A stretch of DNA of 21,906 nucleotides from a virus. Both the position numbers and the translations under genes were made by a program. This document shows positions 1,874-21,801 of this stretch, one piece after another. The stretch is taken from the UHGV virus genome UHGV-1665900. One strand, 5' to 3'. The notes beneath the pieces were generated by a model. That model was not told the DNA's origin. It saw nothing but the letters and a program-made list of their open reading frames with translations, and made no database searches. Positions within the stretch are counted from its first letter, which is position 1. Each line of letters starts with the position of its first letter.

Positions 1874-2236
1874 TCAGGCGCTGTATCCTGAAATCGGGTA
1901 CCGATAATATCCCTCCTGCAGCCATGTGTTGGTGTTAACAAGATACTGTGTATCAATTGAATCCGTCAGATTGCAAAAGTTGATGCCTCTTTCGCGCAGT
2001 TCCTCCACCAGCACGACAAGATGCCGCATACTGCGCCCTAACCTGTCCAGCTTCCAGACAACCAGAGTGTCACCTGCCGATAATGTCCTGAGCAGTTTTT
2101 TCAGTCCGGGCCTTTCGGACTTCGTACCGCTTATCTTGTCTTCAAAAATCAGTTCACATCCTACACAGTTCAACGCATTACGTTGTAGATCGGTGTTCTG
2201 GTCATTTGTTGATACGCGTACATAGCCAATAAGCAT
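1874..2236 (-). pseudogene. pin: Din-family serine DNA invertase (Pin/Gin/Cin/Hin-like), truncated after about residue 96 and fused to unrelated sequence; probably inactive
   Basis: From ATG at 2236 (GGGAG RBS about 9 nt upstream) the translation is [22 protein letters not shown]...DTLVVWKLDRLGRSM.HL..LV.ELRERGINF..LTDSIDT, which is a serine-recombinase catalytic domain. After LTDSIDT it continues QYLVNTNTWLQEGYYRYPISGYSA*, unlike the expected remainder of the catalytic domain and the C-terminal helix-turn-helix. The [12 protein letters not shown] extension in the ORF track is probably not translated. Confidence 0.85.
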
Positions 2237-2290
2237 GGTGGATCTCCCTGACAAAAGCAGGAATGATGCCATTTGCTCGTTATTTCTGCA

Positions 2291-2316
2291 TTTTCATAAA
2301 CGTTGGTTTGGGAGAA
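2291..2316. other. Din-type inversion crossover site, left copy (pix/gix-like)
   Basis: ttttcataaacg-tt-ggtttgggagaa has the two 12-bp half-sites around a 2-bp core that is typical of hix/gix sites. Its reverse complement ttctcccaaacc-aa-cgttt... matches 4164..4189 at 18 of its first 19 positions. Confidence 0.6.
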
Positions 2317-2637
2317 GCGGCAAAACGGAATGTGGGAACAGGGGAAAATCAGATACCTGATATGTCATCATATGCATCAGGTTCAGGCTGGCGAAAAATG
2401 CCAGATGGTTCAATTGAACAGTGGGGACGAATTAGTTTTCCTGGTGAACACGGGCCTGTATCCGCCAATGTTTCATTCCCGATTCCATTTACACAGACAC
2501 CGGGAATTGTAATTGTGTGCGATGGTGGTTTCGGGGGCGGGAATATGTGGGGGGCGACCAACTGGAGCACTACCGGCTTCATAGCTCACTGCAATTATGG
2601 TCTTGAAGGTGGTGCGTTTTTCGCTAAGGGCTGGTAA
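2303..2637 (+). CDS. alternative tail-fibre C-terminal cassette (Sv'-like), promoterless and without its own start; expressed only after inversion fuses it to the constant part of the fibre gene
   Basis: The open frame reads ...[18 protein letters not shown]...[16 protein letters not shown]...AKGW*. The crossover site encodes (N)VGLGE here and (LEN)LGLGE in the fibre gene at 4164..4189, so inversion would keep the frame. Confidence 0.55.
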
Positions 2638-3080
2638 TGATGAAATATCTGTACGTAAACAACCTGGCATATCCTTACGAACTTCAGTCTCTTTATGTTG
2701 AAAAAGGTGAATGGCCTGAAGAAAAAGGTGTTGATATAGACGAAGTAATTTTCAGGGAATATTTCTATGATACACCACCAGAAGGAAAATACAGATGTGT
2801 CGGAGAGGATGGACTGCCTGCATGGGCAGATATTCCTCCACCAACACGTGAAGAACAAATTGCATCAGCCGAAACTAAAAAGCAGCAATTGATTAACCAG
2901 GCCAACGAATACATAAACAGTAAACAATGGCCAGGTAAAGCATCAATTGGTCGTCTGAAAGGTGAGGAACTGGCGCAATATAATTTGTGGCTGGATTATC
3001 TGGACGCACTGGAACTGGTCGATACTTCCGGTGCGCCAGATATTGAATGGTCTACGCCTCCGGCAGTTCAGGCCAGATGA
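2637..3080 (+). CDS. tail fibre assembly protein, alternative copy (U'-like)
   Basis: 147-aa ORF whose ATG overlaps the stop of the Sv' cassette (TAATG). Its C-terminus ...LWLDYLDALELVDTSGAPDIEWSTPP resembles the conserved Tfa C-terminal motif and parallels the minus-strand copy (...LDYIDAVTATDTSTAPDVIWPELP). It converges on that copy. Confidence 0.8.
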   Translation: MMKYLYVNNLAYPYELQSLYVEKGEWPEEKGVDIDEVIFREYFYDTPPEGKYRCVGEDGLPAWADIPPPTREEQIASAETKKQQLINQANEYINSKQWPGKASIGRLKGEELAQYNLWLDYLDALELVDTSGAPDIEWSTPPAVQAR

Positions 3081-3645
3081 CGTCCGGCGCTGTGCTGGTA
3101 TCTGTTGCCGTCACCGCGTCAATGTAATCCAGCACAGCGTTAAGTCGGGTGTTTTCTGGCTGCGTCAGCTTCCGCCCAGCCTGTAATTTCAGTTGAATCA
3201 GACTGATGGAAGCCATTGCAGCATCAATCAGCGACTGGCGCTGTGCTTCTGCCGCTTCTACTGCGGCGCTATGCTGTGCCTCGGTATCCGTCACCCATTT
3301 CTCACCATCCCATTTATCGTATGGCGTTAACGGTGAAAGCGTGACATAACCGTCTTTGATGGCACCGATATAATCCACTGTAACAGCTGCGCCATTTTCA
3401 GTTGAGTAAACGGTCTCATTGCGATGGTCTTCTTCATGGCTCCATCCCTTACCCGTAAATACTGCCACTTTTCCCGGGATGTTTTCGCCCGGGTCAATAC
3501 CAGTGGAACAGGCGGGTATACTTACGCCAGTATTAATATATTCATCAGACCAGCCGGTATATTCATACGTTACTGCATTATAATAAAAACAACGCATATC
3601 GCCCGGCACTGTAGCCAGCCCATTTTCATCAAAAACAGGTATCAT
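3052..3645 (-). CDS. tail fibre assembly protein (U-like, currently expressed orientation)
   Basis: 197-aa ORF immediately downstream of the tail fibre gene with start/stop overlap; conserved Tfa-type C-terminus. Confidence 0.85.
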   Translation of the reverse strand: MIPVFDENGLATVPGDMRCFYYNAVTYEYTGWSDEYINTGVSIPACSTGIDPGENIPGKVAVFTGKGWSHEEDHRNETVYSTENGAAVTVDYIGAIKDGYVTLSPLTPYDKWDGEKWVTDTEAQHSAAVEAAEAQRQSLIDAAMASISLIQLKLQAGRKLTQPENTRLNAVLDYIDAVTATDTSTAPDVIWPELPEA

Positions 3646-4466
3646 TATTTAGCCCTCACCAGAAAGTTAAATGCAATATTTCGTGGACGGGTTTCTGTAT
3701 CTACATTTCCACTAATTTCACCATAACGTTTAACACTACGAGAGCTAAGAGCTCGTAGTGAGGAAGGCACCTTAAGACCGGGTTCGTCCGTTTTAACTAT
3801 TCCCCCGTCACCGTATGTAGCCAGTATTCCTGGGTTTACTCCTTCCCGTGCACTTCCTGCGGCAAGCCCGTCCCCCGTCCACAATTCCATATTGTGTGCA
3901 TGATCCATAATTGTGTGTGATTGCCCTGAAAGTAGGGTACGTCCGACATCAATCCCGCGCCCATCATCCCAGATACGAATGAAATCACCCCGTGCGTCAG
4001 GTAATGCTAGCGCCGGAAACACTTTCGCCAGCACAGGGTAATCAGTGGCAGAGAATTTCGCGCCGTTGAACTTCAAAAACACCATACTGGACCAACTGTC
4101 GATTACAGTATTTGGCATTGCGGCGGACGGCCAGAAGAACGGAACGCCAATAGCTGGAGCACCTTCTCCCAAACCAAGGTTTTCGAGAGCCGTTTTCACC
4201 GTGCCATCCGATTTGATATCGCCAAACGGATTCTTGCGGCTTAACAGCAGCGCACGAAGCGCTGTAAGCAGCTGGTCATGCCGCCCCTTCTCTAGGCTGG
4301 CACCGGATGCCTCCACAACACTGCAAAGTTCCTCCTGCAACATGTCAAAGTAGTCATCATCCAGATCGGTGGCAGGTGTGCCGGTCTGGGGGTTACCACG
4401 GGTAAAACCGTTCTTACCCGCGCCGAACTTATCCTTCTGCGCGGTTTTCGTGTCTATACGATGCAT
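3645..4466 (-). CDS. tail fibre protein (constant N-terminal part plus currently joined variable C-terminal part)
   Basis: 273-aa [49 protein letters not shown]..., an N-terminus typical of enterobacterial prophage side tail fibres. The right crossover site lies inside it at 4164..4189. Confidence 0.85.
4164..4189. other. Din-type inversion crossover site, right copy, inside the tail fibre gene
   Basis: ttctcccaaacc-aa-ggttttcgagag, in inverted orientation relative to 2291..2316. Confidence 0.6.
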
Positions 4467-15809: not shown

Positions 15810-17015
15810 TTACGCCGCTGCAATCTTCAGCAGTTTGATGGCCTGCGAATCGACCAGCATCCCGCCGGTGCGCTTGGTGGTATAAAAACCGACAAACGGT
15901 TTATTGGTGTACGGGTCACGCAGAATGCGGGTGCCGATACGGTCAACGATGGTGTAACCCCGTTTGAAGTTACCAAATGCAATGGCTTTCGCATCAGCGG
16001 CGATATCCGGCATCTGTTCGTTTTCAGCGATACCGTAACCCGCCAGAGAGGACGGCTGCCCCAGTTCCAGCCCCGGACGCCACAGATAGTTACCCTCGGT
16101 GTCTTTCAGCAAACGGATGGCAAACAGGCTGTTGTTGTTCATCATGAACTTCGCGCCGGTGCGGTGTGCCTTTCGCAGCGTGTAAATCAGTTTGATAATG
16201 GCGTCTGCGGTCACCCCCGTCGCTTCGCCGGATACAATATGCTGAAGTTTGCCGAACGCCCGGACCTTATCGGTTTCATCGGTGGATTCATACGCCAGGA
16301 ACCCTTTCGGCTTCTTGGTACCATCGCCTGAGGTAAAGGCAATTTCTTCCTGTTCGGCAAATTCGGTTGCCAGCTCGCTGTTGATCCAGGCCTCCACGTT
16401 GAAGAAGGCATCGTCCAGCATTTTCTGGGTAGCCTGCGGGTTGCCGTAGATTTCCCCCATGAGAGGTTCAATCAGCTCCAGTCTGGAGGTGGCAGTCTGG
16501 GATCGCGTATCCGTTTCCCCCACCCATCCGGAAGCCGTACCGCCCAGATTCACCAGTTTTTTGTAGTCGGAACCGCCAACGGTGATCACCGTGGCTTCCT
16601 GACGCATCACCACTTCATCTTTCAGCAGGTTAAGAATGTTGCGATCCAGTTCTTCCGGCACGGCGTAGCCACCGTCTTCATTGGTGCCCACCTGCAATGC
16701 CTTACGCTCCAGATCGCGCAGACCGTCTTCACGGCCTTTACGCAGGAAGCCCACAAACGCCTCTTTATGCTCGGTGGCCAGTTTATTTTGCGCTCCACCT
16801 GCCGGACGTTTCAGCTCAAGCAGCTCTTTTTCAAGATCGCTTTTGAGGTTTTCCAGCTCGCTGAGTTTCCCGTTCAGGGTTTCCACCTGCCCGGCAAGTT
16901 TGCCTTTTTCCTGCTCAATCGCATCCACGCGCTTGTCGTTCTTTGCTTTGAAGTCGTCAAACTTCTGCTGCAGCTCCTGCGCGACCTGTTCGACATCTTT
17001 AATATCAACCGCCAT
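15810..17015 (-). CDS. major capsid protein, HK97 type, with coiled-coil N-terminal domain
   Basis: 401-aa ORF with AGGAG RBS; N-terminus ...VEQVAQELQQKFDDFKAKNDKRVDAIEQEKGKLAGQVETLNGKLSELENLKSDLEKELLELKRP; follows the protease gene. Confidence 0.85.
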   Translation of the reverse strand: MAVDIKDVEQVAQELQQKFDDFKAKNDKRVDAIEQEKGKLAGQVETLNGKLSELENLKSDLEKELLELKRPAGGAQNKLATEHKEAFVGFLRKGREDGLRDLERKALQVGTNEDGGYAVPEELDRNILNLLKDEVVMRQEATVITVGGSDYKKLVNLGGTASGWVGETDTRSQTATSRLELIEPLMGEIYGNPQATQKMLDDAFFNVEAWINSELATEFAEQEEIAFTSGDGTKKPKGFLAYESTDETDKVRAFGKLQHIVSGEATGVTADAIIKLIYTLRKAHRTGAKFMMNNNSLFAIRLLKDTEGNYLWRPGLELGQPSSLAGYGIAENEQMPDIAADAKAIAFGNFKRGYTIVDRIGTRILRDPYTNKPFVGFYTTKRTGGMLVDSQAIKLLKIAAA

Positions 17016-17029
17016 CGTATTTCTCCTGA

Positions 17030-17680
17030 TTAGAAGTTCAGATTTTTCAGTGCATTCAGTGCAGAGCCCACATCCTCAGCGTCGCGCAGGGACAGTGCGC
17101 CATAGCCCCCGGCCATGAATGCTTTGGCCTGGGTACGGGAGAGTCCGACATCACGCAGGACTCTTTCGATTTTTTTCTGTTCGGGGATTTCCCCGCGGGC
17201 CAGTGCGTTCTTGACGTCGCTGATCCGCGCCTCGTCGTTAGACGGGAACGTCACCAGGCTGACTTCCCAGAGGTCGATTTCTTTCAGCAGAAAGGCTTCT
17301 TTGCTCCGGTCGTATTCCCAGTCTTTCAGGACGTACCCAATAGAAAGACCGGTTAACGAACCGGCCTTCATGTGTGCATGTGCGCGTTTTGCGAGGGGAT
17401 CATCATCAATAAGCAACCGTCCCCTGACGTAAAGCCCGACATCGTCTTCCTTCATTTCGGTGTAAACACCGATGGGTTCATCCATGCGGTGCTGCCAGAG
17501 CAGCGCAGGTAACGCTTTTCTGTCACTCCACGCCCGCAGGGAAGCAGCAAATGCCCCGGACATCACCACATCATCGTGGCTGTCCTTTACACCAAAGACG
17601 GAGCCATACCCTTCAAACTCACCGGAGTCACTGACAGATTTCAGACTCAGCGGTACATCAAGACGTTGTTTCGTCTGCAT
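17030..17680 (-). CDS. prohead protease, HK97 family
   Basis: Motif ...EFEGYGSVFGVKDSHDDVV.... Preferred start is ATG at 17680 (MQTKQRL) with AAGGA RBS, just after the portal stop, rather than the ORF-track start at 17716. Confidence 0.8.
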   Translation of the reverse strand: MQTKQRLDVPLSLKSVSDSGEFEGYGSVFGVKDSHDDVVMSGAFAASLRAWSDRKALPALLWQHRMDEPIGVYTEMKEDDVGLYVRGRLLIDDDPLAKRAHAHMKAGSLTGLSIGYVLKDWEYDRSKEAFLLKEIDLWEVSLVTFPSNDEARISDVKNALARGEIPEQKKIERVLRDVGLSRTQAKAFMAGGYGALSLRDAEDVGSALNALKNLNF

Positions 17681-18899
17681 TGGCGTTATCCTTCTGCTTA
17701 CCGGCTTTACTGCCATCGGAGGGTTTCGTGGTCATGTTCATCGGTGTGAGATAGACATCACCACCGGGACGCGGATTCATATCTTCCAGGTCGCGGCAGT
17801 CATTGGGAGAGTAAATTCCCCAGTTAATCCCGGTGGCGTAGGCTTCAAAACGGGACTTCATATCCCCGCGCAGTAACGCCCCGGCGTTAAATTTGGCGTA
17901 ATAAACGCCCTGCTTACTTTTTCGAACCAGTCCGGTGTTGATCCGCTGCTCGATGCGGGTCAGATACGGCACCAGTGAATAGTTGATAAATCCCAGCCCC
18001 AGCTCTTCAATATTGTTGAAGGTGGCGCGATCGGTGTTCTGCACCATGTGCAACGGCACCCGGAACAGACGACAGATTTCTTCAAGCTGAAACTTGCGGG
18101 TTTCCAGGAACTGGCTGTCCTCGGCGTTCAGCGCCATCGACTTCCAGTCCAGCCCCATCTCAAGGATCATCGGGCGGTGAGCATTACCAAGCCCGGTGTG
18201 ACGCTCCTCAAAATCTTTCTTCAGGCGCTCGTAAGCCTGATCTGACAGCGTCTGCTCTGTACGCAACACACCCGACGTCACCGCGCCATTGCTGAACAGT
18301 CTGGCCCCGTGCTCTTCGGTCGCTGCCGCCAGCGATATTGCCTCGCGGGCATAGGCGATGGGATTCAGCCCCACCAGTCCGTCCAGCGTCAGCGTGCGCA
18401 CATGCCAGATATCCTCCTGGCTCAGTACATCCGTGGAGCCATCCGGGAATGTGACCTGATAGACCGGCTCCCAGCTACTGTTAAGCTTCGGTACCACACA
18501 GCCGGGATCGACGGGCAGCAGTTCAGCCACTTCGCCAAATGCTTTCACTTTGTAGGCGTAAAAGTTTCCCCGCAGGCACAGACAGGTGACCACCAGCTCC
18601 CAGAACTCCTGCGGCGTCATATAGCCATTGGGATGCGTGGAGATCAGCTTATGCAGACGTTCGCCGGTGGCTCTCTGCTTCAGGCTGCCGTTCAGGTGAT
18701 ACAGGTTGCAGGGCAACATCCCGACCGACTCTGCCAGAACCCTGACACAGGAAAAAACCGCCGTCAGTCGCATGGCCCGCTGGCTGCTGATCTGCTTTCC
18801 GGTATAGGTGTCGTAGGACAACCCGATAGCCTCCGCCAGCTCTGCTGGCGTGGTCACCGGTGCGTCACTTTTTCGTTGAAATAATCCCGAAAAGAACAC
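17658..18899 (-). CDS. portal protein
   Basis: 413-aa ORF with GTG start and GGAGG 6 nt upstream, between the terminase and protease genes. Confidence 0.85.
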   Translation of the reverse strand: MFFSGLFQRKSDAPVTTPAELAEAIGLSYDTYTGKQISSQRAMRLTAVFSCVRVLAESVGMLPCNLYHLNGSLKQRATGERLHKLISTHPNGYMTPQEFWELVVTCLCLRGNFYAYKVKAFGEVAELLPVDPGCVVPKLNSSWEPVYQVTFPDGSTDVLSQEDIWHVRTLTLDGLVGLNPIAYAREAISLAAATEEHGARLFSNGAVTSGVLRTEQTLSDQAYERLKKDFEERHTGLGNAHRPMILEMGLDWKSMALNAEDSQFLETRKFQLEEICRLFRVPLHMVQNTDRATFNNIEELGLGFINYSLVPYLTRIEQRINTGLVRKSKQGVYYAKFNAGALLRGDMKSRFEAYATGINWGIYSPNDCRDLEDMNPRPGGDVYLTPMNMTTKPSDGSKAGKQKDNANADETTS

Positions 18900-19081
18900 T
18901 ATTTACCTCCGCCGACAGACGACTGTGTACGGTCAAGATATCGCGCCACCAGCCACGACCAGAACAGGCACAACGCCCCGGCAACAACAAACCCCGCCGG
19001 GGGATAAATCAGCCAGGCACCATACGCCAGCAAAAGCGCCCCCAGCACGCCCACCAGAGGCGCGAGAATCAGCATGATCAT
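18899..19081 (-). CDS. small hydrophobic protein, 60 aa, two predicted transmembrane helices
   Basis: [49 protein letters not shown]...; GAGGT RBS 6 nt upstream of the ATG; its stop overlaps the portal GTG start. Confidence 0.5.
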
Positions 19082-19092
19082 AATTACCTCAG

Positions 19093-20826
19093 TTAAAGCG
19101 AGCGGATCCCATAGGACTCAATGTGGTCAGACAGCGTGTCTTCTTTCTCGTACAGCATGGCTCTGCCAACCGCCATAATCAGCGCAACTGCACCATCGAT
19201 TTTGTTTTCCGCCTGCTCTTTGACGGGCTTCACCACATCATCGTTACCCGGAATGGTTTTGCCGACCACGTTGCCGATACACCAGGTCATGATGGGATTA
19301 CCATCATGATGAAAGCGCCCCGATTCAATTGCCGCTTCCAGCTCTTTCATCGGGTCGGACATGTTGGTGTAATTCTGAATGATAGTGATGGGGTTCAGGT
19401 CTTCATCAGCAAGGTCATGTGACAGCCCGGTCGCCCCGAAGGGGTCGATTGGTGACTCACTGACCGGGCTGATTTTGTTCGCCGCTTTGGCCTCCTCGAG
19501 GATGTAGCGATAATCCACTTCCGCACCATCGGTAACGGTCAGAACGCCCATTTCCACCCATTTCTGAAAGCGTTCGGCTGTCCGTCGATCTTCATTTTTC
19601 TCGACGCTGTACACCGTGTCATACGGTACCCAGAAACGCGGGGCCACACTGTAGTAATGCGTTTTACCGTCAATCTCGCGGGTATAAAGTCGCGCCATGC
19701 TGTTCATATCCAGCTTACGCGCCAGGTCAAAGGCCAGAATGCACGGCTGCCCCTCGAACTGCTCAAGGGTCAGTGATTTATCCTCGCAGCTCTGCCAGCT
19801 TACCAGGTTGAAATACGCCGAACGCGCCGACACCCAGATATTGAGGTGTTTTGTTTTAAAGACGTTTGCCAGACGGGCGTTATTTTTCGCACGCTGCTGC
19901 TGACTTAACAAAAATTCGCGATAAACCGACACGCCAATATTTGGATTGGCTTTTTCCAGCACCTGCGGGTCGGTCCAGTCGTCACCTTCATCAACGGTAT
20001 AGATGATCCCGAACAGTTCATCGTTAGGCACCGAGCCGTTGAGCATCTCGATGACTTCCCGCCGTTTGTCGTAGCACGGCCCCTCAATGTTGTACCCGGC
20101 GGTGGTGATGGCCCACATCAGTGGCTGACGTCGCGCCCCCATCCCGGTAAGCATTGTGGTATAAAGCGCATCGGTGGCATGCTCGTGATATTCATCCACC
20201 ACCGCACAGTGGGGTGATGAACCATCACCGGGGTTACCGATCAGCGGTTCAAAACGCGCACCATCCTCCGGACGGTTCATGTTTGAGGCGTTAACCTCAA
20301 TCCCGAACGCTTCCGTCAGCATGGGTGTGCGTTTACACATCAGTCTTGCCGGACGAAAGACTTCCCACGCCTGTTTCTCCGTCGTGGCACCGGAATACAC
20401 TTCCGCGCCGAACTCGTTATCACAGGCAAAACAATACAGGGCGACACCGGCAGAGATTGCCGATTTGCCGTTCTTACGGGGGATTTCGGTATACACCTCA
20501 CGGAAGCGGCGCAGCCGGGAGCCTTTATTGACCCAGCCAAACGCGCAGCAGATCACAAAGAGCTGCCACGGCTCCAGCGTGATAGGCATCCTCTTGAATG
20601 CCCACTCACCCTTGGTGTGCGGCAACAGCTGAATAAATTTGGCGGCCCGTTCAGCCAGGTCCTTGTCGAAGCGGTAACGAAACGACTTACTTTTTTCCGC
20701 CATCAGGTCATCAAGATGGCGCTGGCAGGCCTGAATCACAAACTGGCAGGCCACAATCTTTCCGCGCACGACATCACGGGCATACTGATTGGCTGCATTT
20801 ACGTTGGGGTAAGATTTCCGGCTCAT
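19093..20826 (-). CDS. terminase large subunit
   Basis: 577-aa ORF with a Walker-A-like motif PRKNGKS, located between the small terminase and portal genes. Confidence 0.9.
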
Positions 20827-20839
20827 GATTCGATGATTT

Positions 20840-21325
20840 TCAGATTGTCAGAAACGGGTTAGTGGCTTTCTTCTTCCCCGCCAGGCCAATCAGACGCTGG
20901 CGGCTGCTGGGGTCGAGTCCGAGCATTGCCCCCGTGCTGCTCATCTCGGACTCCTGTTCTTTTTTGGCGGTCAGCTCCGGATTTTTGACCATGCCGCCCA
21001 TTGCACCGGTGATGGTGTTGCCCTGTCTGGCAATATTTTTCACGGCACGTCGCCAGAATTCATAGGCCACACACCACCGCTCAAGTACCGCCAGGTCAGT
21101 CACGCACAGCAGGCCCTGACCGCAGAGTTCTTTGGTTGTCAGTTGCCACATGATCGTGGCGAGAGGGAGATCTTCTTCAGCGAACCACTCCGGTGGCTCA
21201 ACACCTTTGATGGGCGTAAAAACAGGTTCATCTTTATTCAGGGCTCGCTTGCCGGGGTTTCCGGCCAGCGCCTTGCGCGCCGTTGGCTTGGGGCGACGCC
21301 CGGAACGCCCCGCCGTTCCAGCCAT
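20840..21325 (-). CDS. terminase small subunit
   Basis: Basic N-terminus, directly upstream of the large terminase. Preferred start is ATG at 21325 ([11 protein letters not shown]) with AGGAG 8 nt upstream; the ORF-track start at 21334 is a GTG with no spacing to that RBS. Confidence 0.8.
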
Positions 21326-21375
21326 ATGCGGCACTCCTGGTTAAATTTCATTTTTCGCGGGTATAAAAAAACGAT

Positions 21376-21450: not shown

Positions 21451-21801
21451 TTACTTCAGCCGTTCACGGGCCGTCTTCGCCTTATGACACGGCCAGCACA
21501 GGCTCTGCAGATTACTGTCGGCATCAGAGCCGCCATACGCTTTAGGAATGATGTGGTCAACGGTTTTCGCCTCACGCACCACACCAGCACGCAGACATAG
21601 CTGACACAGGCCTTTGTCACGCTTCAGGACACGCACGCGGATAACATCCCACTTCGAACCATAACCGCGCTGATGACGAGATTGTCCTGGCTTGTATTGC
21701 TTCCAGCCTTCGCTTTTATGGCTTTCGCAGTAGCCTGACGGGTCCGTGGTTGTAGAGCGGCAGCCGCGAACACGGCAGGCTTTTGGGATTCTAGGGGGCA
21801 T
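21451..21801 (-). CDS. HNH endonuclease (terminase-associated)
   Basis: 116-aa ORF with CxxC...CxxC and H-N-H motifs (CQLCLRAG...VDHIIPKAYGGSDADSNLQSLCWPCHKAKT), immediately upstream of the terminase genes. No RBS is visible. Confidence 0.85.
   Translation of the reverse strand: MPPRIPKACRVRGCRSTTTDPSGYCESHKSEGWKQYKPGQSRHQRGYGSKWDVIRVRVLKRDKGLCQLCLRAGVVREAKTVDHIIPKAYGGSDADSNLQSLCWPCHKAKTARERLK

Follow-up and report, generated by a model that had tools for sequence, protein, structure and literature searches.

The stretch of DNA analyzed here, 21,906 nucleotides (nt) of the UHGV virus genome UHGV-1665900 (hereafter the window), carries a complete HK97-type packaging and head operon on its minus strand. 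Between the genes for the large terminase subunit (TerL) and the portal protein of this operon lies ymfR (18899..19081, minus strand), which starts with ATG, encodes 60 amino acids (aa) and ends with a TAG stop. It was identified from the open reading frame (ORF) listing, RefSeq names and the family PHROG 502. The two flanking genes are assigned by their Pfam matches: TerL (19093..20826, minus) by PF03354 and PF20441, and the portal gene (17658..18899, minus, GTG start) by PF04860 (E=4e-108). Genes for an HNH endonuclease (21451-21801), a P27-family small terminase (20840-21334), a prohead protease (17030-17716) and the major capsid protein (15810-17015), all on the minus strand and supported by the ORF listing and Pfam, complete the operon.

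The TerL stop codon TAA (19093-19095) is separated from the ymfR start by 11 nt, which contain a Shine-Dalgarno sequence read as GAGGT (19086..19090, minus) 4 nt before the ATG. At the other end, the TAG stop of ymfR and the GTG start of the portal gene overlap by 1 nt in the string TAGTG, and the Shine-Dalgarno sequence of the portal gene, GGAGG (18906..18910, minus), is contained in ymfR codons 58-59 (GGA GGT), an arrangement that enteric relatives share. An earlier sequence-only reading of this DNA had described a 60-aa ORF with two hydrophobic helices at 18899-19081, a GAGGT ribosome-binding site and a start/stop overlap with the portal gene. All three descriptions were confirmed, the helices by hydropathy and AlphaFold2, and the strand, which that reading had left unstated, is minus.

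A 60-codon ORF is not significant by itself in this region, because 61 ORFs of 30 aa or longer touch the 6 kb of the window that were listed; ymfR is judged a real gene because it is conserved. Its reading frame is open (54-64 aa) in more than 30 diverged enterobacterial orthologues, while antisense frames gain stops, and the median pairwise ratio of nonsynonymous to synonymous substitution rates (dN/dS) of these orthologues is 0.31, with synonymous sites near saturation. These values indicate purifying selection on ymfR, and the poor conservation of the frame among relatives that the sequence-only reading had considered was not seen. Two enteric loci carry homologues, just before the portal start at locus position 3501, that appear frameshifted. 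The second copy in Shigella flexneri SFBU0723 (locus L167) has a TerL-portal gap of 192 nt, not 193, and in Xenorhabdus bakwenae (locus L185) the family profile matches two overlapping partial ORFs.

ymfR is located in a late operon and has no transcription signals of its own. A consensus scan detected neither a promoter-like site near 19082-19200 nor a terminator after 18899. The G+C content at third codon positions is 0.69 in ymfR, 0.64 in TerL and 0.69 in the portal gene. Inside ymfR, a terminator-like 12-bp stem followed by TTTTG is present at 19036-19063 (minus; -22.6 kcal/mol, z=-1.5 versus shuffles), and the corresponding position is marked as a "terminator" in the record of phage SfII. 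The hairpin is no more stable than shuffled sequence, so nothing indicates that it functions as a terminator.

Both the gene and its family are already known and named. YmfR of the window is 100% identical to Escherichia coli K-12 YmfR (b1150), which is encoded by the cryptic prophage e14 and assigned to InterPro IPR020297 in its RefSeq record. The flanking signals in e14 are the same, with the start context GAGGTAATTATG and the junction GGAGGTAAATAGTG. However, the e14 gene lies between remnants of the terminase (aaaE/ymfN) and portal (beeE) genes, both truncated, whereas the head module of the window is intact. Of 5,426 complete E. coli genomes, 1,635 (~30%) contain prophages that match this region at 98-99% identity, and RefSeq names the gene in near-identical prophages "ymfR: protein YmfR". 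A related-locus search led by the window protein returned only E. coli copies of 98-100% identity. More distant relatives were recovered from larger collections. PHROG 502, annotated as "membrane protein", matches with E=2.5e-28 (residues 1-55 on profile positions 3-57 of 58). A search of 5.8 billion proteins at E<=1e-3 yielded 167 homologues, the great majority 60 aa long, from Escherichia, Salmonella, Citrobacter, Klebsiella, Yersinia, Hafnia and other genera, and an exhaustive phmmer search of 1.84 billion 50%-identity cluster representatives gave 172 matches at E<=1e-3, nearly all of 50-70 aa. The motif common to the family, G-x2-G ... Y-G-A-W-x2-Y-x-P-A-G-F ... G, is present in the window protein. 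By these sequence matches, ymfR belongs to a widespread phage family of predicted inner-membrane helical hairpins of ~45-85 aa (PHROG 502). Neisseria NGO0488, a 49-aa "holin" (PMC1931599), was considered as an experimentally tested relative and rejected; it is encoded between replication genes and rusA, has a single transmembrane helix and is unrelated.

Functional information on ymfR is sparse. The e14 copy is induced together with other e14 genes under an SOS-inducing antibiotic, with a log2 fold change of 4.5 (PMC10012262), and ymfR was among many membrane-protein clones in an overexpression screen (PMC10299036). It has also been used as a neutral integration site, and its deletion was reported to have no host phenotype (PMC9145139). 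No functional study of ymfR was found; the literature searched on ymfR, ST64B, SfII and phiKO2 gave gene lists only.

Annotations of the family vary among phage records. Those for phiP27, ST64B (sb3), SfI, SfII and 118970_sal3 use "membrane protein" or "putative integral membrane protein". The SfIV records (KC814930 / NC_022749) leave ymfR unannotated, and the SfIV paper counts the portal as orf-3. Several recent records label YmfR homologues "head-tail joining protein W" (the records at issue, with those of SfIV, are ON470603, ON470584, ON470580 and PQ793804). Phage lambda does encode a small protein, gpW, between A (TerL) and B (portal), in a slot like that of ymfR. However, gpW is a soluble protein, and YmfR was rejected as a gpW: it is almost entirely hydrophobic and has no match to a gpW-type Pfam family. 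The label is thus a positional misannotation, applied to a hydrophobic hairpin.

Kyte-Doolittle hydropathy over 19 residues has maxima of 2.67 and 1.81, with hydrophobic segments at about residues 2-25 and 31-46, and AlphaFold2 predicts helices at residues 2-25 and 27-57 (mean predicted local distance difference test score 73). From hydropathy, AlphaFold and conservation, transmembrane helix 1 is placed at residues 2-25 (19007..19078, minus), with conserved G11, G14, Y20, G21, A22 and W23, and transmembrane helix 2 at residues 31-46 (18944..18991, minus), with the invariant G35. Between them is a tight turn, Y26-P-P-A-G30 (18992..19006, minus), which is predicted to be periplasmic and which, together with its flanks, forms the most conserved motif of the family. 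A short, variable and polar C-terminal tail (R47...GGGK; 18902..18943, minus) follows, whose final G-G codons carry the portal ribosome-binding site. About 45 of the 60 residues (~75%) would be embedded in the membrane. The basic residues of YmfR are confined to the tail. Among 94 family members, 73 have no charged residue in the turn and 91 have K or R in the C-terminal tail. Since an uncharged turn and a basic tail follow the positive-inside rule, the predicted topology of YmfR is N-in/C-in, with YPPAG as a very tight turn.

Column conservation, measured over the same 94 members, is concentrated in this membrane part. G21, W23, P28, G30 and G35 are each at least 94% conserved, and the focus of conservation is on membrane glycines (G11, G14, G21, G30 and G35) and interface aromatics (Y20, W23, Y26 and F31). 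Because the conserved residues are nearly all intramembrane glycines and aromatics, they suggest helix packing or oligomerization in the bilayer and not a soluble interface. The cytoplasmic tail is variable, except for a basic residue after helix 2 and for terminal glycines forced by the portal ribosome-binding site. C-termini in the family are often G-rich or of the form (K/E)-G-x, such as GGGK, GGE, KEG and GD (18902-18910 in the window), because the portal Shine-Dalgarno sequence (GGAGG, AAGG or GAGG) is encoded in the last codons. The apparent conservation of the C-terminal protein sequence is therefore read as a constraint at the nucleotide level. Searches for known domains or folds gave little. 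Pfam returned four weak sub-threshold matches to unrelated membrane-protein families, with no holin or gpW-type family among them, and NCBIfam gave no match above threshold. A sequence profile search of the PDB found nothing (best E=0.74), and Foldseek comparison of the AlphaFold hairpin with BFVD found generic helical hairpins only, with no match at E<=0.001.

The slot between TerL and portal was followed in two independently retrieved sets of loci. The first consists of 80 IMG/VR loci found with distant, mostly high-GC family members as queries, a retrieval blind to genomic context. All 80 have a small ORF between TerL and portal, at portal identities to the window down to 27-41% and TerL identities of ~20-30%. 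These ORFs encode 60 distinct variants of 45-77 aa, about 55 of which overlap the portal start by 1 nt (TGATG, TAATG or TAGTG) or 4 nt (ATGA). The second set, 80 loci from one-genome-per-species contigs, was retrieved by the portal motif only, blind to ymfR, and was searched with a profile built from 94 family members. Strong family matches lie directly upstream of the portal in 34 of 34 enterobacterial loci (portal at least 70% identical) and occur again in Rhizobium, Shinella, Alloalcanivorax, Pseudoalteromonas and metagenome-assembled genomes of Burkholderiales and Phycisphaerales. Among 41 non-enterobacterial portal relatives sampled, 36 had a readable junction, which is direct in 27 and holds a small ORF with two transmembrane helices in the remaining 9. 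TerL-portal gaps above 100 nt always contain such an ORF in this set. Those from Dehalococcoidia, Anaerolineales and Leptospiraceae do belong to the family, although their scores are weak: they reach 14-19 bits, and none of 2,000 composition-matched shuffles exceeds 11. For those from a betaproteobacterium (L223), Arcobacter (L226), Nonomuraea (L230) and Acrocarpospora (L234), no homology to YmfR could be detected. Look-alike proteins may have entered this slot repeatedly, or the family may diverge beyond recognition. Firmicutes loci of the second set contain no family member and have TerL-portal gaps of 5-31 nt.

Cultured phages extend the range of the family. Klebsiella phage phiKO2 gp3, Marinobacter phage AS1 gp3 and Azospirillum phage Cd gp30 occupy the slot between TerL and an HK97-family portal with a stop/start overlap, as do Staphylococcus phage phiRS7 Orf3 (38 bits) and Mycobacterium phage Bipper gp10 (33 bits). 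Together with the PHROG 502 members of phiP27, ST64B (Sb3), SfI and SfII, they have the length class, two-helix hairpin and YGAWL.Y.PAGF motif of YmfR as well as its slot and overlap. Against the family profile, the cultured-phage proteins score 33-81 bits; composition-matched shuffles, made for phiRS7 and Bipper only, reach at most 16. A tblastn search of cultured phages with a distant portal returned Firmicutes and gut phages only. Family members are thus found in phages whose hosts are Proteobacteria, Staphylococcus or Mycobacterium, and in Chloroflexi and Leptospiraceae prophages. Compared with YmfR, they diverge at the N-terminus and the C-terminal tail, and the high-GC and Gram-positive ones carry a short charged N-terminal extension. 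The sequence-only reading had called the TerL-portal junction usually direct in HK97-type head modules. This holds for HK97 itself and for most of the non-enterobacterial relatives, but not for the enterobacterial loci, every one of which has a ymfR-type ORF. The comparison of synteny that it had proposed is likewise divided: ymfR is missing from HK97 and from sister lineages, yet it is present in all 34 enterobacterial loci and reappears in distant lineages. Its description of a membrane protein gene inside the packaging operon, additional relative to HK97, is supported. The distribution indicates that ymfR is an ancient, optional and position-locked element of the head module, not a recent insertion.

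Inheritance of ymfR was compared with that of its neighbors in 37 non-redundant enteric loci, in which TerL is 32-100% identical to that of the window (several lineages) and the portal 70-99%. Similarity of YmfR follows that of the portal (Spearman 0.84, p about 8e-11) and not that of TerL (Spearman 0.26, p=0.13). Recombination joints therefore separate ymfR from TerL, and ymfR moves together with the portal-protease-capsid block. The N-termini of the portal proteins do not separate lineages with ymfR from those without it; both start with an M..F..LF-type motif.

ymfR is thus an integrated, optional gene of a head module that combines a P27-type small terminase, TerL and an HK97-type portal, protease and capsid. 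In the explanation favored here, to which we assign a probability of roughly 40%, its product is a late-expressed, optional, portal-linked membrane protein of this module that places or assists the portal, or the initiation of the prohead, at the membrane. ymfR appears to be translated from its own GAGGT site, and the overlap of its stop with the start of the portal gene allows ribosomes that terminate there to re-initiate. YmfR would act late, during virion morphogenesis, at the cytoplasmic membrane, where it would most likely position newly made portal protein or the start of the prohead, or assist either of them. It would raise the efficiency of assembly and be non-essential, because sister lineages do without it.

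A precedent is found in phage T4, where the portal initiator gp20 is membrane-bound and depends on the viral chaperone gp40 (PMC9958956). The likeness to YmfR is a functional analogy only: a phage factor aids assembly of the portal dodecamer at the inner membrane, which starts the prohead. Unlike ymfR and the portal gene, T4 genes 40 and 20 are not adjacent. Phage PRD1 offers a looser parallel in P20 and P22, membrane proteins of 4.7 and 5.4 kDa that are required for the unique DNA-packaging vertex (PMC4267777). However, PRD1 has an internal membrane and P20 and P22 are virion components, whereas tailed phages have no internal membrane, and no homology is claimed. A membrane-proximal mechanism of portal or prohead assembly is put forward here with low confidence.

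Several observations weigh against this explanation. The sister lineages without ymfR are gammaproteobacterial, have portals 48-71% identical to that of the window and include Gilliamella, Motilimonas, Amphritea, Neptuniibacter, Halomonas, Endozoicomonas, Alishewanella and others; in them no family member is found and the TerL stop overlaps the portal start. HK97 also has a direct junction (TerL 542-2056, portal 2056-3330) and no ymfR. The portal therefore does not need ymfR in general. Stop/start overlap also joins TerL to the portal where ymfR is missing, so that the coupling reflects general operon design and is not specific evidence for a link between YmfR and the portal. The 2 apparently frameshifted copies among the 34 enteric loci, described above, imply that ymfR decays in some prophages. 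With cytoplasmic parts that are short and not well conserved, YmfR offers a soluble portal protein little surface for binding. We know of no membrane step in HK97-type head assembly, and no experimental evidence for any function of YmfR was found.

A stronger version of the same idea makes the YmfR family a dedicated membrane factor, coupled to the portal, by which assembly of the HK97-type procapsid is nucleated at the cytoplasmic membrane or tethered there; this is rather improbable. Such a factor might act as a ring of oligomerized hairpins, or it might draw the ymfR-portal mRNA, with its ribosomes, to the membrane. If true, membrane-associated head initiation, so far a specialty of T4, would be widespread in temperate HK97-like phages of Gram-negative as well as Gram-positive bacteria.

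The main rival explanation, unlikely as it is, gives YmfR a late effector role at the membrane that has nothing to do with assembly: as a holin-, antiholin- or viroporin-like hairpin, it would oligomerize in the inner membrane and tune membrane potential or the timing of lysis while heads fill. Class II holins or pinholins, such as S68 of phage 21, have two transmembrane helices, N-in/C-in topology, ~60-70 aa, glycine-rich helices and a charged C-terminal tail. YmfR resembles them in size, in its two helices, in its predicted topology and in its charged tail; moreover, its conserved intrahelical glycines suggest oligomerization, and its conservation resides in the membrane-embedded part and not in the cytoplasmic tail. 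Lysis genes also occur amid packaging genes in other phages, as with 17.5, 18.5 and 18.7 of T7. However, YmfR matches no Pfam holin family, and a 98.9%-identical prophage already encodes, upstream of its HNH gene, a holin of the lambda family together with an endolysin and a lysis protein. In more than 160 loci ymfR never adjoins an endolysin gene and always adjoins the portal. The dual start known from pinholins is not conserved either: the M1-I-M3 start is found only in the E. coli variant, and relatives start with MFL, MIL or MK.

The sequence-only reading had suggested a moron, such as a superinfection-exclusion factor or another membrane-acting protein. Morons have their own promoter and terminator, a composition unlike their surroundings and a variable presence among close relatives; HK97 gp15 and the lambda-type morons are small membrane proteins encoded in the late structural operon of temperate phages. 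On this explanation, YmfR would be expressed from the prophage and protect the lysogen, for example by blocking entry of superinfecting phage DNA at the inner membrane as HK97 gp15 does. Its being a small inner-membrane protein, additional relative to HK97, its patchy distribution among related portals and its intactness in e14, a decayed prophage whose neighboring terminase and portal genes have been truncated, are all in keeping with such a role. However, ymfR lacks a promoter and terminator of its own and does not differ in composition from its neighbors, unlike HK97 gp15 and its kind. Its slot is kept across phyla and it is co-inherited with the portal. Host-receptor-specific exclusion would not predict a position and portal coupling that are conserved even in phages of Gram-positive hosts. 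PADLOC defense models gave 0 families at E<=1 for YmfR. The e14 gene is induced with the lytic genes under SOS conditions (PMC10012262), and deletion in K-12 was reported without a phenotype, in a report of which phage challenge was not part (PMC9145139). The moron and exclusion readings are thus not supported and are quite unlikely. PHROGs places the family in the category "moron, auxiliary metabolic gene and host takeover", which the synteny described here does not support.

More doubtful still is a virion-associated YmfR, which would be carried in the particle at or close to the portal and, once released during infection, would help to form a conduit for DNA through the inner membrane. ymfR always lies beside the portal gene and is co-inherited with it, and the small membrane proteins P20 and P22 of PRD1 are integral to its packaging vertex (PMC4267777). 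However, a protein with about 45 of 60 residues in the membrane would find no lipid environment in a tailed-phage capsid, and no virion proteomics reporting YmfR was found. The phages named above suggest that the family occurs with different tail types. In such phages, the conduit is normally supplied by the tape-measure protein.

Finally, it is scarcely credible that the peptide is functionless and the ORF a translated spacer that sets portal translation by termination-reinitiation: although the overlap with the portal start is nearly universal and the portal ribosome-binding site lies inside the ORF, a specific motif is conserved across phyla (the five residues at 94% or more in 94 sequences), dN/dS is about 0.3, and related phages couple the portal directly to TerL without any such ORF.

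Other features of the window lie outside the TerL-portal junction. The longest ORF of the prohead protease, with its start at 17716, shares 59 nt with the end of the portal gene (17658-17716). RefSeq places the protease start of a near-identical prophage later, with a 23-nt overlap, so the true start is uncertain. A toxin-antitoxin pair of the RnlA/RnlB (RNase LS) type (389-1925, minus), situated at the window's left end, comprises the antitoxin RnlB (389-751, minus; PF15933, E=3.5e-24) and the toxin RnlA (744-1925, minus; PF19034, PF19417 and PF15935, plus a HEPN domain). The pair is not at this position in the closest E. coli match and looks like real cargo or defense at the end of the prophage. 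A tail-fiber switching region (1874-4466) contains a shortened Pin-type resolvase of 132 aa overlapping the rnlA start (1874-2272), a gp53-like tail-fiber C-terminus (2263-2637, plus) and two opposed tail-fiber assembly genes (2637-3080, plus; 3052-3645, minus). The invertase appears to have been cut short by insertion of the toxin-antitoxin pair.

ymfR itself is ordinary, a named y-gene of K-12, and it is a good candidate for a simple knockout study more than a surprise in itself. The analysis adds how deeply its position is conserved, that it is inherited together with the portal and how far it is spread across phyla. Few uncharacterized proteins of the HK97-type head module keep their position as strictly as YmfR does, from prophages of E. 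coli to phages of Staphylococcus and Mycobacterium, and yet some genome records omit the gene or mislabel its product as gpW. If the role in head assembly is true, a step linked to the membrane would exist in a system that is regarded as assembling freely in the cytoplasm; if YmfR is instead a late membrane effector, it would represent a new class of phage small membrane protein. Either way, the PHROG category "moron / host takeover" and the "gpW" labels are not to be relied on for this family.

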